Positions 3,724 through 10,480 of a DNA stretch of 19,147 nt are shown here, in pieces. Under the pieces are notes generated by a model, which saw nothing but the letters and a program-made list of their open reading frames with translations, did no database searches and was not told the DNA's origin. Numbering within the stretch: the stretch's first letter is position 1; each line of letters begins with the position of its first letter. Made by a program: the position numbers and the translations under genes. Origin of the DNA: a virus; UHGV virus genome UHGV-0126495; one strand, written 5' to 3'.

Positions 3724-4770
3724 ATGGCCAATACTGTAAAAATATCCAGTTGTGAGTTAATCAACGCTGATTGCCTGGAATTTATCCAGACCTTACCGGA
3801 AAACTCTGTCGATCTGATAGTCACAGACCCGCCATATTTTAAAGTGAAGCCCGAGGGCTGGGATAACCAGTGGAAGGGCGACGATGATTATCTGAAATGG
3901 CTGGATCAGTGTCTGGCGCAATTCTGGCGGGTACTGAAGCCTGCCGGAAGTCTTTATCTGTTCTGTGGTCATCGCCTGGCATCTGACACCGAAATCATGA
4001 TGCGTGAACGCTTTAATGTGCTGAACCACATTATCTGGGCGAAGCCGTACGGACGCTGGAACGGGTGTAATAAGGAAAGTCTGCGGGCGTATTTTCCGGC
4101 AACAGAACGCATTCTGTTTGCTGAACATTATCAGGGGCCATACCAGCCCAAAAATGACGGCTATGCGGCAAAGGGGCGCGAGCTTAAGCAGCACGTCATG
4201 GCCCCGCTGATTTCTTACTTTCGTGATGCGCGTGAATCACTGGGAATAACGTCAAAACAGATAGCGGAAGCCACCGGAAAGAAAAACATGGCTTCGCACT
4301 GGTTTGGTATCAGTCAGTGGCAGTTGCCGAACGAAGGCGATTATCTGAAATTACAGGCGTTGTTTGCGCGTGTTGCAGCAGAAAAACATCAACGAGGGGA
4401 ACTGGAAAAGCCACACCACCAGCTGGTCAGCACATACAGTGAACTGAACCGGCAATATGCCAGTCTGCTGAAGGAGTACAAATCCCTGCGGCGTTATTTT
4501 TCCGTATCGGCTGCCGTTCCGTATACGGATGTCTGGACGCACAAGCCTGTGCAGTATTACCCCGGCAAACATCCCTGTGAGAAACCGGCGGATATGTTGC
4601 GTCAGATAATTACCGCCAGCAGCCATCCGGGAGATTTGGTCGCTGATTTTTTTATGGGGTCGGGGTCAACAATAAAAGCAGCATTATCGCTGGGAAGGCG
4701 TGCAATAGGTGTGGAACTGGAAGAAGATAGATTTAACCAGACTGTAATTGAAATAAAAAATAATCGTTAA
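3724..4770 (+). CDS. orphan DNA methyltransferase, beta-class amino-methyltransferase (probably N6-adenine; N4-cytosine not excluded)
   Basis: 348-aa ORF with motif IV DPPY at nt 3826-3837 near the N-terminus and motif I FFMGSGST at nt 4648-4671 near the C-terminus (IV before I is the beta-class permutation). No restriction endonuclease candidate nearby. Confidence 0.88.
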   Translation: MANTVKISSCELINADCLEFIQTLPENSVDLIVTDPPYFKVKPEGWDNQWKGDDDYLKWLDQCLAQFWRVLKPAGSLYLFCGHRLASDTEIMMRERFNVLNHIIWAKPYGRWNGCNKESLRAYFPATERILFAEHYQGPYQPKNDGYAAKGRELKQHVMAPLISYFRDARESLGITSKQIAEATGKKNMASHWFGISQWQLPNEGDYLKLQALFARVAAEKHQRGELEKPHHQLVSTYSELNRQYASLLKEYKSLRRYFSVSAAVPYTDVWTHKPVQYYPGKHPCEKPADMLRQIITASSHPGDLVADFFMGSGSTIKAALSLGRRAIGVELEEDRFNQTVIEIKNNR

Positions 4771-4939: not shown

Positions 4940-5015
<76 letters not shown>

Positions 5016-5018
5016 TAT

Positions 5019-5093
<75 letters not shown>

Positions 5094-5456
5094 GCATTTG
5101 AAATAAGCCTTATTGTATTGCAGCACTGGCGTATTTTTATTACGTGGGAGCAGGTTGTTTTGAAAAAGCATTCTGTTCTCTGGCTATGATTTGAGGCCAG
5201 GTTAGCCTCAGTGCTGATTTTTTTACGGCAGCAGAATGGTGCATTGCTGGTGGAGATTTTGTATTTCCTGGCAGGGTCGGTGATGTATCATTCTGGTGTT
5301 GTAAATAACACCATCGGGGCGCTCCTCAGGGCGAGGGTGGTTAAAAGAGTCGGTTTAGCGGGAAACCACAGTATTCATACAGGACGGAATACTTCGGGAG
5401 GCACCCGACGCCTCGATTTTATTACAATTAAAAAATTCATTCCTTGCATTGACCAA

Positions 5457-5480
5457 CCGCCGTATCTGGCGGTTTTTTTT
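5457..5480 (+). terminator. intrinsic terminator (likely end of the tRNA transcription unit)
   Basis: CCGCC-gtatct-GGCGG hairpin followed by eight T (5473-5480). Confidence 0.6.
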
Positions 5481-5490
5481 ATTCTTAATT

Positions 5491-5526
5491 CGAAAAAAGA
5501 AAACACGGACACTGATAATGTCCGTG
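5491..5526 (-). terminator. intrinsic terminator for minus-strand transcription
   Basis: 8-bp stem CACGGACA / TGTCCGTG (5504-5526) with 7-nt loop; on the minus strand followed by TTTTCTTTTTTCG (plus-strand A-run 5491-5503). Confidence 0.5.
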
Positions 5527-5803
5527 TGGCAATGCCATGTAAGTCAGCGATGAATATGGCGCAAAAAAAGCGCGGCTGTCGGATTAACGCCGCGGGACAA
5601 AGTCCGTGAAGAAGAATAAGTATCGGTCTCCTTCCGGAGACGAGTTGATATTACTAAGCTTTAAAAATGGTTTAAATCCTCAGATTGACCTTAATTTCCG
5701 GTAAGTCTTATTTCATTTTCTCCGCGCTACCTCCAGCGCACATCACATCAGGTAACGCCACACAAAAGGCATCTGCGGGTGCCTTTGACGGGTGTTTTTT
5801 TAC

Positions 5804-5829
5804 GGGCCGCTGGTGGCCCTTTTTTATTT
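5804..5829 (+). terminator. intrinsic terminator immediately upstream of the lysis cassette
   Basis: GGGCC-gctggt-GGCCC hairpin followed by TTTTTTATTT; ends about 15 nt before the AGGAGA ribosome-binding site of the 5845 ORF. Confidence 0.6.
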
Positions 5830-5844
5830 ACAGGAGAAAAAAGT

Positions 5845-6237
5845 ATGTCTGAACCCTTGTCCGGTTCCGGCACGGCTGCGGCGCTCGGCGGGGCGACGGT
5901 ATTCGGGCTGTTTACCGGAACGGATTTCGGGATTGTGTTTGGTGCGTTCGCCGGGGCGTTATTTGTGGCAACGATGCCGCAGGCGCTTTCAGCCTGGCGT
6001 GTGGTGGCGCATTTTCTTGTGTCGTTCATTATCGGCGTGCTGGGCGCAGAGGTTCTGGCGTCCTGGCTGGTAAAGCATACAGGGTTTGACGGTGCACCTG
6101 TTGACGCATTGTGTGCAGTACTGGTGTCAGTGGTGTCGGTGAAGATTCTGTCGTTCATCCACCAGCAGGATATCGCATCACTGGTGTCCGGTCTGTTCTC
6201 CCGCCTGCGGGGCGGAGGAGGCGGCAATGTTAAGTAA
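5845..6237 (+). CDS. putative holin (multi-TM small membrane protein, 131 aa)
   Basis: ATG at 5845 preceded by AGGAGA (5832-5837); the longer listed start at 5779 would read through the terminator. Three to four hydrophobic helices and a charged Gly-rich C-tail; first gene of a lysis-type cluster ending in an endolysin. Confidence 0.55.
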   Translation: MSEPLSGSGTAAALGGATVFGLFTGTDFGIVFGAFAGALFVATMPQALSAWRVVAHFLVSFIIGVLGAEVLASWLVKHTGFDGAPVDALCAVLVSVVSVKILSFIHQQDIASLVSGLFSRLRGGGGGNVK

Positions 6238-6502
6238 CCTTCCCGGAGTGCTGAATGTGGCGTTATGTACGGTTATCGTGCTGACGCTCTTTTTTTATCG
6301 TCGTCGTGACTCCAGACACAAACCGCTGATGTCATGGCTGGCCTGGCTGCTGATGCTGCTTTATGGCTTTGCTCCACTCAGCTATCTGTGTGGTCGCCCG
6401 TTAGCAACGGGCTGGCTGGAAGTGTTTTTTAATCTGCTGTTCTGCGTGTTGGTGATACGCGCACGCGGGAACGTCACAAAAATCTTTCCATTGTTGAGGT
6501 GA
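6227..6502 (+). CDS. small three-TM membrane protein (second lysis-cassette component; holin/antiholin-like)
   Basis: ATG at 6227 preceded by GGAGGAGG; overlaps the 3' end of the previous ORF by 11 nt and ends at the endolysin start. Three hydrophobic segments. Confidence 0.5.
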   Translation: MLSNLPGVLNVALCTVIVLTLFFYRRRDSRHKPLMSWLAWLLMLLYGFAPLSYLCGRPLATGWLEVFFNLLFCVLVIRARGNVTKIFPLLR

Positions 6503-6504
6503 AT

Positions 6505-6882
6505 ATGCCGGGTAAATTCAGATTCAGCCGTCGGAGCGAGAAAAATCTGGAGGGCGTCAAACCACAACTGGTTGCTGTCGTTCGCCGTGCCCTTGAGCTG
6601 ACGGAAGTTGATTTCGGTATTACGGAAGGCCTGCGCAGTAAGTATCGCCAGAAACAGCTGGTCGCGGAAGGGAAAAGCCAGACCATGAACAGCCGCCACC
6701 TGACAGGTGATGCGGTGGATGTTGTGGCCTACATTGGCAGCCAGGTGTCATGGGACTGGCCTCTGTACGAGAAAATAGCGCAGGCATTTAAGCAGGCTGC
6801 CGCAGAGCTGGGAACTGCCATCGAATGGGGCGGTGAGTGGCGGTCGTTAAAGGACGGGCCTCACTTTCAGCTGAAACGATAA
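6505..6882 (+). CDS. endolysin, peptidase M15 family (L-alanyl-D-glutamate endopeptidase type)
   Basis: ATG at 6505 preceded by GAGGTGA; the listed GTG start is 6499. Motifs SRHLTGDAVD and DGPHFQL match the zinc-binding signature of M15 peptidases such as phage T5 endolysin. About 125 aa, no signal peptide. Confidence 0.85.
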   Translation: MPGKFRFSRRSEKNLEGVKPQLVAVVRRALELTEVDFGITEGLRSKYRQKQLVAEGKSQTMNSRHLTGDAVDVVAYIGSQVSWDWPLYEKIAQAFKQAAAELGTAIEWGGEWRSLKDGPHFQLKR

Positions 6883-6888
6883 ATAAGG

Positions 6889-6921
6889 CAAAGCCCCGGT
6901 TGTTGGAGCAATCGGGGCTTT
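6889..6921 (+). terminator. candidate hairpin/terminator after the endolysin gene
   Basis: 8-bp stem AAGCCCCG / CGGGGCTT with a large loop, followed by TGTGTTTAT; weak T-tract. Confidence 0.3.
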
Positions 6922-7011
6922 GTGTTTATGGATTCATTTTGTGAATGCGCATGGGGATCATTCATGCCAGTAAAGCCTAACACGACGAAAGATAAATTTG
7001 GAGATGATCTG

Positions 7012-7161
7012 ATGATAAAAGCAGAAACCACCCCGCAGTGGGCTGATGATGCCGCAAAAATCATCGCGGTATGCCGGGGCATCAGACACATACTGACGCC
7101 AGTTGCATGGATTATTTGTACCGCACTGGTTGCATACACAACAATTTATTTAAACAGATGA
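7012..7161 (+). CDS. hypothetical small C-terminally anchored membrane protein
   Basis: ATG at 7012 preceded by GGAGA (7000-7004); alternative starts GTG 6922 and ATG 6964. C-terminal hydrophobic helix ILTPVAWIICTALVAYTTIYL. Stop overlaps the ATG of an unlisted 28-codon ORF (7158..7244). Confidence 0.3.
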   Translation: MIKAETTPQWADDAAKIIAVCRGIRHILTPVAWIICTALVAYTTIYLNR

Positions 7162-7245
7162 GTGCTGATTTTATTCGGGCGGTGGCTTTTGCAATTCGCC
7201 TTGTGGCGGTCGCTGTTCTGATTTGGGCTGTGCGTTGGTGGTGAT

Positions 7246-7479
7246 ATGAGCCGAAAACACTGGACACACAGAATGCCGCGAACGGAGGCGAAATGGGCAC
7301 TGGTAGCGATACTGGTGCCTTTTTTATTGGTGGGGTGCGTTAGCCTGGATAAGGCGCGTCAGCTTTTCGATACCGCGTCTCAGGTCTGCCAGATTATTGA
7401 TGGCGTTCGGCGGTGTTCGCAGAACTGCTCACCAACATTACAGCAGCCCTTCAGCCGAGGGGCTGCAATAATGCTTTAG
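7246..7479 (+). CDS. putative small lipoprotein (possible o-spanin-like lysis component)
   Basis: ATG at 7246 preceded by GGTGGTGA. Signal peptide with lipobox LLVG-C, mature part about 46 aa with four Cys. Lies in the +1 frame relative to the upstream 28-codon TM ORF. Confidence 0.4.
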   Translation: MSRKHWTHRMPRTEAKWALVAILVPFLLVGCVSLDKARQLFDTASQVCQIIDGVRRCSQNCSPTLQQPFSRGAAIML

Positions 7480-7682
7480 TTGTCTTTCATAAATCCTTTA
7501 ATGACCCATCCCACAAGCCTGGTGATGCTGTACACCAACAAGGCAATTATCAGAGATACAAGGATATCAAACAGTGAGAATCCTTGCGTATCCGTTGTTG
7601 AAAATAAAAGACTAAAGATGAACACCAGAATGGCCAACAGAATACCTACCCGGTGAAAGCCTTTAGAAATCATGTTTTTCAT
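7476..7682 (-). CDS. hypothetical small two-TM membrane protein (68 aa) at the bor-equivalent position
   Basis: Minus-strand ORF with GGAGG 4 nt upstream of its ATG and a candidate extended -10 promoter (TGtTAAAAT) further upstream. Two hydrophobic helices, no lipobox. Converges on and overlaps the 7246..7479 ORF by 4 nt. Confidence 0.5.
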   Translation of the reverse strand: MKNMISKGFHRVGILLAILVFIFSLLFSTTDTQGFSLFDILVSLIIALLVYSITRLVGWVIKGFMKDN

Positions 7683-7742
7683 TTGTCCTCCATATTTGTT
7701 TTTTAAAGGGTGGGCATTTTAACATCAGAAGGATGAAATTCT

Positions 7743-8093
7743 ATGCCATCACGAATCCCACGTGCCTGCCGTAAGCGTGGATGCGCAGGTACAACCACAG
7801 ACAATTCTGGTTACTGCGATAAACATCGTGGTGAAGGATGGGCACAGCATCAGCGCGGACTGAGCCGCCACCAGCGTGGATATGGCTCGAAATGGGATGC
7901 CATACGGGTGCGCATACTGAAGCGTGATAATCATCTGTGTCAGAACTGCCTGCGCAATGGGATAGCCGTTGAAGCCAGAACTGTGGACCACATCATTCCG
8001 AAAGCTCATGGTGGCACGGATGCAGACAGTAACCTGCAGAGTCTGTGCTGGCCCTGCCATAAAGCAAAAACTGCGCGCGAACGTATCAACTGA
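7743..8093 (+). CDS. HNH endonuclease (packaging-associated)
   Basis: 116-aa ORF with Cys pairs (CRKRGC...YCDKH; CQNC...CWPCH) and H-N-H residues (DHIIPKAHGG...N); located just upstream of the terminase genes as in HK97-like phages. Confidence 0.88.
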   Translation: MPSRIPRACRKRGCAGTTTDNSGYCDKHRGEGWAQHQRGLSRHQRGYGSKWDAIRVRILKRDNHLCQNCLRNGIAVEARTVDHIIPKAHGGTDADSNLQSLCWPCHKAKTARERIN

Positions 8094-8240
8094 TAATTGT
8101 TCTCACCTGTAGGGGAGGGGCGGGTCAAATCTCTGCAACCCTGGCTGCTCAGTACCGCCGCCTGACCTTTCCTCGCATCGCCGCAGGTTCGAAAACTTTT
8201 TTTTGGAATGTGATTAAATGATTGATAGGTAAAACCGATT
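8094..8240. other. putative cos (cohesive-end) packaging region
   Basis: Non-coding GC-rich segment (GGGGAGGGGCGGG, CCGCCGCCTGACC) between HNH and TerS, where HK97-like phages carry cos. The exact cut site cannot be determined from sequence. Confidence 0.3.
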
Positions 8241-8723
8241 ATGTCTGGACCCCCGAAAACCCCGCCACGCCTGCATTTGATACGAGGTAACCCCTCAAAG
8301 CGGCCAGTTAAAGACCCCAAAAAAACCGCTAAAAAGGATGAAAAAGGTCTCCCTAAAATTCCGCAACATTTAGGGGCGCAGGGGAAGTACTGGTTCAGGC
8401 GAATGGCGGAAGAGCTGAATGCGGAAGGGATCATTTCTCAGCTTGATGCGCGTGCACTCGAGTTACTGGTGGAAGCCTACATCGAATACCGGCATCACTG
8501 CGAAACACTCGATGTTGAGGGGTATACCTACCGCACGGAAACGCAGAATGGCGATGTGATGATCAAGGCACATCCGGCTGCGGCGATGAAAGCGGATGCC
8601 TGGAAGCGGATTCGGGCGATGCTTGCAGAGTTTGGTATGTCACCGGCAAGCCGGGCGAAAGTAAATATCGCCGGACCGGATGATGTTGATCCGCTGGCAG
8701 AGCTTTTAAAAGCGAGAGACTGA
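8241..8723 (+). CDS. terminase small subunit (P27-family type)
   Basis: 160-aa ORF directly upstream of and overlapping TerL (ATGA at 8723); basic N-terminus; resembles P27-family small terminase subunits from memory. Confidence 0.8.
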   Translation: MSGPPKTPPRLHLIRGNPSKRPVKDPKKTAKKDEKGLPKIPQHLGAQGKYWFRRMAEELNAEGIISQLDARALELLVEAYIEYRHHCETLDVEGYTYRTETQNGDVMIKAHPAAAMKADAWKRIRAMLAEFGMSPASRAKVNIAGPDDVDPLAELLKARD

Positions 8724-10480
8724 TGGCAAAAGTGGCTGACGGGATCCGCTACGCCGAACGTGTTGTTGCAGGAGAAATTGTTGCTGGCGAATTTGTCCGT
8801 CTGGCCTGCCAGCGTTTTCTTGATGATCTGAAGTACGGCGAAGAGCGGGGGATTTATTTCAGTGAACCCCGTGCGCAGCACATCCTGAATTTCTATAAAT
8901 TTGTGCCCCATGTGAAAGGGGCGCTGGCAGGCCAGCCCATTGAGTTGATGGACTGGCATGTTTTTATCCTCATTAATATTTTTGGTTTTGTCATTCCGCT
9001 GGTGAATGAAGAGACCGGGGAAGTTGTCATGCGCAGCGATGGCAGCGGACGCCCGGTGATGGTGCGCCGGTTCCGGACAGCGTACAACGAAGTCGCCCGT
9101 AAAAACGCAAAATCAACCCTGTCATCGGGTATCGGTCTGTATATGACGGGGGCAGATGGTGAAGGCGGGGCTGAGGTGTATTCAGCCGCAACCACGCGTG
9201 ACCAGGCCAGAATCGTGTTTGAAGACGCCAAAAATATGGTCAGAAAAGCCCGGTCGACACTCGGGCGATTGTTTGATTTCAACAAGCTGGCGATTTACCA
9301 GGAGCAGAGCGCATCAAAATTTGAACCGCTTTCCTCGGATGCAAACAACCTGGACGGTCTGAACATCCACTGCGCCATTATTGATGAGCTGCATGCACAT
9401 AAAACCCGCGACGTGTGGGACGTTCTGGAAACGGCAACCGGTGCTCGTCTGCAGTCCCTGTTATTTGGTATCACCACGGCTGGCTTTAACAAGGAAGGGA
9501 TTTGTTACGAGCAACGCGATTACGCCATCAAGGTATTGCGTGGCTATAACAGCGACGTGGAGGGCGCGGTAAAAGACGACTCCTACTTTGCGATTATTTA
9601 CACCCTCGATGAGGGAGATGATCCGTTTGATGAAACGGTCTGGCAGAAAGCGAATCCCGGACTGGGCATCTGTAAACGCTGGGATGATCTGCGTCGTCTG
9701 GCGAAAAAAGCGAAAGAACAGGTCTCTGCGCGGGTGAATTTTTTTACCAAACACATGAATGTGTGGGTAACAGCAGAGTCTGCCTGGATGGACATGATTA
9801 AGTGGGAGAAGTGCGAATACATTGCCCCACGACATGAGCTGAAAACGTATCCCATGTGGGTCGGCGTTGACCTTGCTCATAAGATTGATATCTGTGCGGC
9901 GGCAAAACTCTGGCGAACGGATAACGGGCATGTTCATGCCGATTTTAAATTCTGGCTTCCGGAAGGACGGCTGGAACGATGCTCGCGGCAGCAGGCAGAA
10001 CTTTACCGGAAGTGGGCGGAGATGGATAAGCTCATCCTGACGGATGGTGATGTTATCGATCATGCTCAGATAAAAAGTGACTTACTGGAATGGATTGGCG
10101 GTGAAAACCTCAGGGAACTGGGATTTGACCCGTGGAGTGCAATGCAGTTCAGTCTGGCTCTGGCTGAAGAAGGGATATCGCTGGTGGAAGTTCCGCAGAC
10201 GGTCCGCAATCTGTCAGAGGCCATGAAGGAAACGGAATCACTGGTCTATGCCGGGCGTTTCCATCACAGCAATCACCCGGTCATGAACTGGATGATGTCT
10301 AACGTTACGGTAAAACCGGACAAAAACGACAATATCTTCCCGAACAAATCCACGCCTGAAGCCAAAATCGACGGCCCTGTTGCGATGTTTACAGCAATGA
10401 GCCGGATGCTGGTCAATGGCGGTGAACCGGAGCCGGATCTGTCTGAACACCTGATTAGTGTTGGTATCCGCTCGCTTTAA
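8723..10480 (+). CDS. terminase large subunit
   Basis: 585-aa ORF with size, position and sequence character of a large terminase (N-terminal ATPase, C-terminal nuclease); coupled to TerS. Confidence 0.93.

Follow-up and report, generated by a model that had tools for sequence, protein, structure and literature searches.

The UHGV virus genome UHGV-0126495, a stretch of 19,147 nucleotides referred to here as the window, represents the late region of a phiP27-like Escherichia coli prophage, the closest complete genome being that of E. coli ETEC1738 (99% identity). Between the last gene of the lysis region and the genes for an HNH endonuclease and the terminase, on the strand opposite to the late genes, lies an open reading frame (ORF) of 68 codons, which is annotated in ETEC1738 as the hypothetical protein WP_064226580.1. 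The comparisons described below indicate that this ORF is a genuine gene under purifying selection, that it is carried by a small cassette with the features of a moron and that its product is probably an inner-membrane hairpin. Taken by itself, this anatomy is something of which we are highly confident. The features of the cassette and of its surroundings are listed in Table 1.

Table 1. Coordinates of the cassette, its component parts and the neighbouring features of the window
Feature	Position	Strand	Basis or remarks
Putative moron cassette, 307 bp: 3' hairpin, ORF, ribosome-binding site, extended −10	7428..7734	−	Empty-site comparison
Coding sequence, 68 amino acids, ATG start, stop TAA at 7478-7476	7476..7682	−	Conservation, ratio of nonsynonymous to synonymous substitution rates (dN/dS), hydropathy/charge, AlphaFold2
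Shine-Dalgarno (SD) sequence GGAGG	7687..7691	−	4-nt spacer to ATG 7682-7680
Candidate sigma-70 promoter: −10 TAAAAT 7721-7716, extended TG 7724-7723, weak −35-like TAGAAT 7743-7738, 16-nt spacer	7716..7743	−	
Stem-loop, 2 nt past stop codon	7436..7473	either strand	Folding energy and shuffles
Lipoprotein-like late gene, outside cassette	7246..7479	+	Lipobox LVGC, phrog_7528; 77 amino acids here, normally 60
HNH endonuclease gene, packaging-associated, divergent from cassette	7743..8093	+	PF01844, 4e-16
DNA methyltransferase gene	3724-4770		Upstream of lysis cassette
tRNA-Thr(TGT) and tRNA-Gly(TCC)	4940-5093		Upstream of lysis cassette
132-amino-acid ORF, function not assigned	5211-5609		Upstream of lysis cassette
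Holin	5779-6237		PF16931
Holin	6227-6502		PF05449
M15 endolysin	6499-6882		
Small membrane ORFs	6922-7161 and 7158-7244		
TerS, P27 family	8241-8723		
TerL	8723-10480		Followed by portal

The minus-strand gene and its cassette

A sequence-only reading of this stretch had described a minus-strand ORF of 68 amino acids with a GGAGG ribosome-binding site. Both are present in the sequence, the ORF having an ATG start and the GGAGG lying at 7691-7687. The length of the ORF is not unusual on its own, there being 46 ORFs of at least 30 amino acids in 4 kb. We regard it as a gene because it is under purifying selection, keeps its length and start, is syntenic and has remote homologues. Intact ORFs of 65-72 amino acids are found at 19 loci from E. 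coli, E. albertii, Citrobacter braakii, Erwinia and viral contigs; they represent 13 distinct alleles, with amino-acid identities from 99% down to 40%. The sequence-only reading had named a lack of conservation in related prophages as an outcome that would count against it, and in those prophages the ORF is intact, under purifying selection and present as at least 13 distinct alleles. In pairwise comparisons the dN/dS of the minus-strand frame is 0.12-0.33, which is the lowest among the six frames in most pairs. By region, it is 0.14 for the N-terminal motif and first transmembrane (TM) helix and 0.24 for the second TM helix and C-terminal motif, and it is relaxed (0.56) in the loop. The ATG, the SD sequence and the ORF length are conserved across the homologues; GGAG or GGAGG is present in most Escherichia and Citrobacter copies, with a weaker GGAA in the lambda-type copies.

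The ORF could instead be non-functional, arising by chance or as the shadow of a 58-amino-acid ORF on the plus strand (7480-7656), and the frequency of short ORFs in this region and the openness of the antisense frame would both fit such a view. The plus-strand ORF was considered as the true gene and rejected: its dN/dS is higher (0.16-0.58), it starts with TTG and its length varies between loci. Because it shares third codon positions with the minus-strand ORF, a shadow frame is expected to stay open here; the hydrophobic minus-strand gene has few Tyr, His and Gln codons, so that the opposite frame is rarely closed. With selection strongest in the minus-strand frame, a conserved ATG, SD sequence and length, about 60 remote homologues with common motifs and a confident AlphaFold2 model, we consider the chance that the ORF is not a gene to be negligible.

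The limits of the cassette are given by empty sites in E. coli UTAK-5 (L039) and AH19B041 (L040), in which homology to the window ends at 7427 and restarts at 7735, with a 35-bp spacer between. The GC content is 37.5% over 7476-7742, compared with about 53% in the neighbours and a range of 52-57% in the flanking genes. Morons have been characterized as extra DNA with deviant GC content, their own promoter and terminator, and expression from the repressed prophage (PMC3594210). The stretch 7428-7734 is extra DNA relative to close relatives and deviates in GC content from its surroundings, and on these grounds is by its sequence a probable moron, the extended −10 element and the 3' hairpin being candidate signals. 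The earlier suggestion that the ORF is a moron gene is thereby strengthened by the cassette limits, the low GC content, the conserved extended −10 and the conserved 3' hairpin.

The cassette occurs in 16 of 5426 complete E. coli genomes, whereas the adjacent HNH region occurs in 1213. It is not in phiP27 itself, and tblastn searches with the protein gave no match in 50,697 deposited phage records or in 72,556 plasmids. A pairing of the protein with the adjacent HNH protein as a 'membrane nuclease' was considered and rejected in view of the unequal counts for the two and of the place of HNH in the packaging module.

The lipoprotein-like gene that converges on the cassette ends in TGA in the empty sites, which reads TGC where the cassette is present, and its product is lengthened from 60 to 77 amino acids by 17 extra codons that run across the hairpin. 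The 4-nt overlap between the two ORFs, to which the sequence-only reading had drawn attention, is real, but it is a by-product of the insertion, which removed the TGA stop. At the other end, the ribosome-binding region of the HNH gene (7727-7742, plus strand) is supplied by the promoter-side end of the cassette and reads AGAAGGATGAAATTCT-ATG, compared with AGAGGAGCGAAATTCT-ATG in the empty sites, so that HNH now has a translation-initiation region altered by the insertion. The alleles of the window and of L025, for example, are only 61% identical between near-identical flanks, and we therefore attribute such divergence to cassette replacement by recombination rather than to rapid drift.

From the candidate promoter, transcription is predicted to start near 7709, giving a 5' untranslated region (UTR) of about 27 nt. 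The −35-like element on the minus strand overlaps the HNH start codon on the opposite strand. The spacing between the motif TGnTAAAAT and the ATG is constant in all of the copies from Escherichia and Citrobacter. L029 has TGtTATAAG, and the lambda-type loci L004 and L005 keep the motif although their upstream DNA is otherwise unrelated. By itself TGNTAAAAT occurs three times in the window against 0.85 expected, which is not significant; the weight of the −10 element therefore rests on its conserved distance in diverged homologues and not on the match.

The shared hairpin GCAGCCC...GGGCTGC noted earlier at 7443-7466 is present as the inner part of a longer stem, and is contained in the lengthened 3' part of the lipoprotein ORF. 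The inner stem (7443-7449 with 7460-7466) is GC-rich and of 7-10 bp, and the outer stem is of 5 bp on the plus strand and 7-8 bp on the minus strand. The folding energy is −23 to −25 kcal/mol (z = −3.3 for the minus strand and −3.8 for the plus strand), and none of 200 shuffles was equally stable. All of the homologues have a stem-loop after the stop codon, at a distance of 2-5 nt in the copies from Escherichia, Citrobacter and Erwinia. In the Erwinia copies a two-tier stem is formed from other bases (CAUCAU-AGGCCCA...UGGGCCU-GUGAUG), which constitutes compensatory change, and a U-run is found only in L029, whose hairpin is different and U-tailed. The stem-loop is a probable 3'-end terminator or stabilizer of the minus-strand transcript.

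The protein and its family

Hydropathy analysis places hydrophobic segments at approximately residues 12-28 and 37-54. There are three Lys/Arg residues in the N-terminal tail, none in the loop, which is acidic, and three in the C-terminal tail. From the hydropathy and the positive-inside rule, the product is predicted to be a two-helix inner-membrane protein with both termini in the cytoplasm. The AlphaFold2 model obtained with a 55-sequence alignment is a helical hairpin with helices at residues 2-28 and 37-64 (predicted local distance difference test score, pLDDT, 88; predicted template modelling score, pTM, 0.71), so that the two TM helices of the sequence-only reading are seen in both the hydropathy profile and the model. 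Its statement that the protein is not a lipoprotein also holds, as there is no cysteine and hence no lipobox.

The protein contains GFHRVG at residues 8-13 and the pattern Y51..R55..GW(58-59)..GF(63-64). Across the family these correspond to the motifs R-I-S/H-x-G-F-H-R-x-G, which immediately precedes TM1, and Y-x3-R-x2-G-W-x-I-x-G-F, located where TM2 ends. In the 55-sequence alignment Phe9 and Arg11 are invariant, and Gly8, His10, Gly13, Tyr51, Gly58, Trp59, Gly63 and Phe64 are at least 90% conserved; in a 35-sequence alignment the invariant columns are Arg11, Gly13 and Trp59. Under the predicted topology both motifs are cytoplasmic and juxtamembrane. The TM cores are conserved in hydrophobicity only, and the periplasmic loop may be as short as about six residues or contain inserts of over 100. 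A few family members have extra C-terminal modules, namely a tRNA_anti-like oligonucleotide/oligosaccharide-binding (OB) fold or DUF2569.

A word-indexed search found five Escherichia clusters only. An exhaustive HMMER profile search found 60 cluster representatives at E ≤ 1e-3 and a second profile search found 82 clusters, the members found being all unnamed and without Pfam domains. The sequence-only reading had recognized no family, and Pfam, PHROGs, NCBIfam and PADLOC indeed gave nothing above threshold for the 68-amino-acid protein or for 35 family members; the protein is, however, not an orphan but one of about 60 representatives of an undescribed family. A literature search by accession number and topic found no paper on the protein. 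As judged from the profile matches, it belongs to a wider family without prior description or name. This appears to be a family of stand-alone two-TM hairpins with paired cytoplasmic motifs and a loop that is variable or bears a domain, and appears to span diverse bacteria; the organisms were named for Escherichia, Citrobacter and Erwinia only.

Weak matches to PspG, pseudopilin, TatA and a two-TM model of the cyclic-oligonucleotide-based antiphage signalling system (CBASS) were examined and dismissed as hydrophobic-segment noise. The match to phage shock protein G (PF09583) scored 13.8 bits (E = 0.076), below the gathering threshold of 25 bits. The PADLOC model PDLC00702 of a CBASS two-TM effector was matched over its N-terminal third only (E = 0.11, 9.8 bits); the protein has no additional domain and there is no cyclase nearby. 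A sequence-profile search of the PDB gave nothing with E < 0.06, the C-terminal hairpin of CorA being found at E = 0.84, and a Foldseek search of the model against the PDB and BFVD returned generic helical hairpins only (E ≥ 0.19).

Genomic settings

In all of the prophage contexts the gene is antisense to the late operon and lies between lysis and packaging genes, in company with three types of terminase. The bor-equivalent slot on the opposite strand, as it had been described from the window, is thus kept across P27-type prophages, lambda-type prophages and a third terminase type. In the P27-type prophages (loci L001, L003, L007, L016-L020 and L025-L032) the gene is directly divergent from HNH, and at L004, L005 and L021-L024 it is upstream of a lambda-type terminase. 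At the Erwinia rhapontici locus L033 it is convergent with Rz/Rz1 and precedes a small terminase of a third kind (332 amino acids, untyped).

The copy at 4017-4223 (minus strand) of L004 and L005 encodes a 68-amino-acid protein of approximately 69% identity and is not annotated by the Prokaryotic Genome Annotation Pipeline (PGAP); L021-L024 also carry a family copy. The lambda-type prophage of L005 (E. coli O8:H8 16F5M1D1) has genes for the A and B subunits of the LT-II heat-labile enterotoxin at 992-2137, between the holins and the M15 endolysin, and L021, L022 and L024 have a gap of similar size at this place. In E. coli STEC308 (L006, 2937-3185) a prophage remnant ends in the C-terminal end of the family ORF beside the hydrogenase-1 operon (hyaA); the fusion forms a chimeric ORF of 82 amino acids that PGAP lists as a hypothetical protein.

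The cargo upstream of the lysis cassette also differs between prophages, with Stx2e in phiP27 and TerB/DUF3927 in strain C311. Downstream of the M15 endolysin in the window, the lipoprotein-like ORF and the two small membrane ORFs may represent a non-canonical spanin-like set. A probable cohesive-end site lies at approximately 8150-8165, between HNH and TerS, as indicated by flank homology to the annotated phiP27 cos (compare L002, 3629-3638); its core differs, being CGCCGCCTGA-like in the window and CGCCCGCCCC in phiP27. By the same homology, about 0.45-0.75 kb would separate the cassette from the right end of the virion DNA.

The family also occurs in other settings. A divergent subfamily (P0080 and P0033) is found directly downstream of two different chaperone-usher fimbrial operons on mobile elements of E. 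coli, conjugative plasmids among them. Its members have 67-72 amino acids with the pattern FFHR ... GW-x-IN (L008-L012, 6001-6219; L037, 6001-6204; plasmids NZ_OP242271.1 and NZ_OP242220.1), and the gene is unannotated on the 150-kb conjugative plasmids. The gene for one member is preceded by an HTH_3 regulator on a contig of phage- or plasmid-like character, and others are in integrase-bearing or hypervariable islands. A chromosomal member (P0051; L013, 217-5967) is downstream of genes for caspase-like (Peptidase_C14), trypsin-like and NTP_transf_8 proteins. This region may be a defence island, but PADLOC matched no system there except for the caspase model. Searches of Pfam and PADLOC with the slot co-occupants and the L013 neighbours were uninformative except for the caspase-like and NTP_transf_8 proteins some genes away. 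When the neighbours in seven non-prophage contexts were compared all against all, no conserved partner gene was found. As no neighbour is common to the contexts, the gene would work alone or with host components.

Possible functions and relation to known systems

We propose that the 307-bp moron, inserted between the last lysis-region gene and the HNH and terminase genes of the phiP27-like prophage so as to oppose the late operon, would be transcribed from its own sigma-70 extended −10 promoter. The mRNA would be short, with an untranslated leader of about 27 nt and a strong SD sequence, and would end at the conserved stem-loop. This transcript would be made in the lysogen while the late operon is silent and, after induction, would be opposed by convergent late transcription. 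The product would be a 68-residue inner-membrane hairpin with both termini in the cytoplasm, its juxtamembrane motifs conserved and its periplasmic loop free to vary. It would most plausibly serve as an accessory factor at the inner membrane that benefits the lysogen, and the version that we favour is superinfection exclusion at the DNA-entry step, because of the analogy with HK97 gp15, P22 SieA and T4 Imm. The autonomous cassette, the selected inner-membrane hairpin protein and its dispensability for the phage are shown in silico, and we infer the expression in the lysogen, the silencing by convergent late transcription and the exclusion function. The proposal as a whole, with a moron product that protects the lysogen by exclusion at DNA entry, is tentative.

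Several observations weigh against this proposal. A consensus scan found no canonical −35/−10 promoter and no promoter-like site on either strand, and the candidate promoter has no good −35 element; of the promoter claimed in the sequence-only reading, the extended −10 TGtTAAAAT at 7724-7716 and its conserved spacing stand, but the motif lacks significance by itself. As the hairpin is without a U-tract, termination there is not assured. The conserved parts of the protein are on the cytoplasmic side, although in an entry blocker a conserved periplasmic face might be expected. No sequence or profile similarity to known exclusion or defence proteins was found in Pfam, PHROG, PADLOC, NCBIfam or the PDB. 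Members occur outside prophages, on fimbrial plasmids, in integrase islands and in diverse metagenome contigs, many of which look G+C-rich, and this spread suits a more general function at membranes no less well than it does phage exclusion.

The main rival is a host-physiology modulator, i.e. a protein that uses its cytoplasmic motifs to bind or tune a host membrane or membrane-proximal protein (a transporter, a sensor kinase, a protease, or secretion or fimbrial machinery being candidate targets), in a form of conversion unrelated to defence. The placement of the conserved residues at the cytoplasmic interface, with variable TM cores and loop, is in keeping with this, as are the subfamily that directly follows fimbrial operons in two contexts on E. 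coli conjugative plasmids and the presence of the family in non-phage islands without a fixed neighbour. No partner or conserved neighbour was identified, however, and the familiar small regulators MgrB, AcrZ and MgtS are mostly single-TM proteins unrelated to the 68-residue protein. We regard modulation as possible but doubtful. The immunity of an orphan kind against a membrane-targeting bacteriocin, a microcin or a pore-forming effector of contact-dependent inhibition or type VI secretion, by which the lysogen would be protected from competitors, would suit the size and two-TM inner-membrane topology of the protein, which resemble those of class II microcin and colicin V immunity proteins, as well as its carriage on mobile elements and the high allelic diversity at a fixed locus. 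Yet no toxin gene is linked in the contexts examined, no immunity family of NCBIfam or Pfam is matched and conserved cytoplasmic motifs are unexpected for immunity proteins matched to toxins, and such a role seems very improbable to us.

Of the ideas of exclusion, abortive infection and toxicity raised by the sequence-only reading, a stand-alone toxin is the least likely. The hairpin would in this case oligomerize and depolarize the membrane when triggered, as a membrane-damaging toxin or abortive-infection effector, or would be a type I toxin under the control of an antisense RNA. A small, hydrophobic protein with two TM helices that is borne on mobile elements would suit such a role, and its non-significant likeness to the N-terminal two-TM part of the CBASS effector model points the same way. 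A free-standing toxin is nevertheless improbable. The 307 bp form a self-contained unit in which a constitutive-looking promoter and a strong SD sequence are combined with a short leader; this unit leaves no space for an antitoxin and has no conserved partner gene in any context, and neither a promoter-like site for an antisense RNA nor an Rfam match was found. An Rfam scan of 6800-8400 found no small-RNA or antitoxin family, with sub-threshold chance matches near 6884-7007, and no Pfam toxin family is matched. The TM segments are moreover without conserved polar or pore-lining residues, and a constitutive free-standing toxin would not be maintained under the purifying selection observed. A part in the phage cycle, whether as an early function expressed from the first-entering DNA end, as a modulator of holin timing or through transcriptional interference with the late genes, would be in keeping with the constant position of the gene at the junction of lysis and packaging, antisense to the late genes and near the cos site deduced from phiP27. 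We give it little credence because only about 1% of the related prophages are occupied; the gene is dispensable, being absent from phiP27 and from the deposited phage records, Erwinia uses the same slot beside a different small terminase, homologues are found in non-phage settings and selection acts on the protein rather than on transcription alone. The protein matches no holin family and is encoded on the strand opposite to the holins, which does not support a holin or antiholin.

If exclusion or defence is nonetheless correct, the family could be a new single-gene inner-membrane module carried by mobile elements, variable on the outside for recognition and conserved on the inside for action, which in cos-type phages would be planted in the lysis-packaging slot near the probable right end of the virion DNA. 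We consider this extension unlikely. Functions in lysogenic conversion and against phages have a major source in prophage morons; most of the small membrane proteins among them are without an assigned role and many are not annotated, as with the lambda-type copies missed by PGAP, including that in the prophage of 16F5M1D1 with the LT-II genes. Nothing yet distinguishes the present protein among the numerous prophage-encoded small membrane proteins that lack an explanation, and should it give no phenotype it would be an ordinary hypothetical moron. The gene may be of the sort that prophages use to protect or alter their host. The analysis has provided a delimited cassette, a family defined by motifs and a set of residues (His10, Arg11, Trp59 and Gly63/Phe64) as targets for mutation, and has turned an anonymous ORF of enterotoxigenic and Shiga toxin-producing E. 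coli prophages into a directly testable candidate for phage exclusion or membrane modulation. The cassette is a clean, single-gene and experimentally tractable one.

Among the known systems, T4 Imm and P22 SieA are small phage-encoded membrane proteins that block the entry of phage DNA at the cytoplasmic membrane (PMC11436027). The present protein is likewise small, of phage origin and similar in predicted location, but no similarity to either was detected in Pfam or PHROG, and the gene for Imm belongs to the early genes of a virulent phage. HK97 gp15 is a YebO-like, small inner-membrane superinfection-exclusion protein encoded by a moron with its own promoter and terminator and deviant GC content; it is expressed from the prophage and has homologues outside prophages (PMC3594210). 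The moron architecture (with a candidate promoter and a candidate terminator in our case), the small inner-membrane product and the homologues beyond prophages are shared. In contrast, gp15 lies within the tail operon and exclusion by the present protein is suggested by analogy; no match to the YebO family of Pfam was found for the protein or for any of the 35 members scanned, and the only Pfam family at E ≤ 0.1 was PspG (0.076). With the generic lambdoid morons in the definition of Juhala and Hendrix, the cassette has in common its insertion relative to relatives, a candidate promoter and 3' hairpin, and a deviant GC content.

The closest parallel in position is bor of phage lambda, which is located between Rz/Rz1 and cos and is transcribed against the late operon; Bor itself is an outer-membrane lipoprotein (Pfam Lambda_Bor, PF06291). 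Both genes occupy the same slot in the opposite orientation, after the last lysis gene and before the packaging genes, the Erwinia copy converging on Rz/Rz1 exactly as bor does, and both are self-contained accessory genes that are presumably expressed in the lysogen. The products differ, as the 68-residue protein has no cysteine or lipobox, does not match the Pfam Bor family and is predicted to be a two-TM hairpin of the inner membrane. The comparison thus suggests an element of an ordinary kind, a moron in the bor slot, that carries a protein of an undescribed family.

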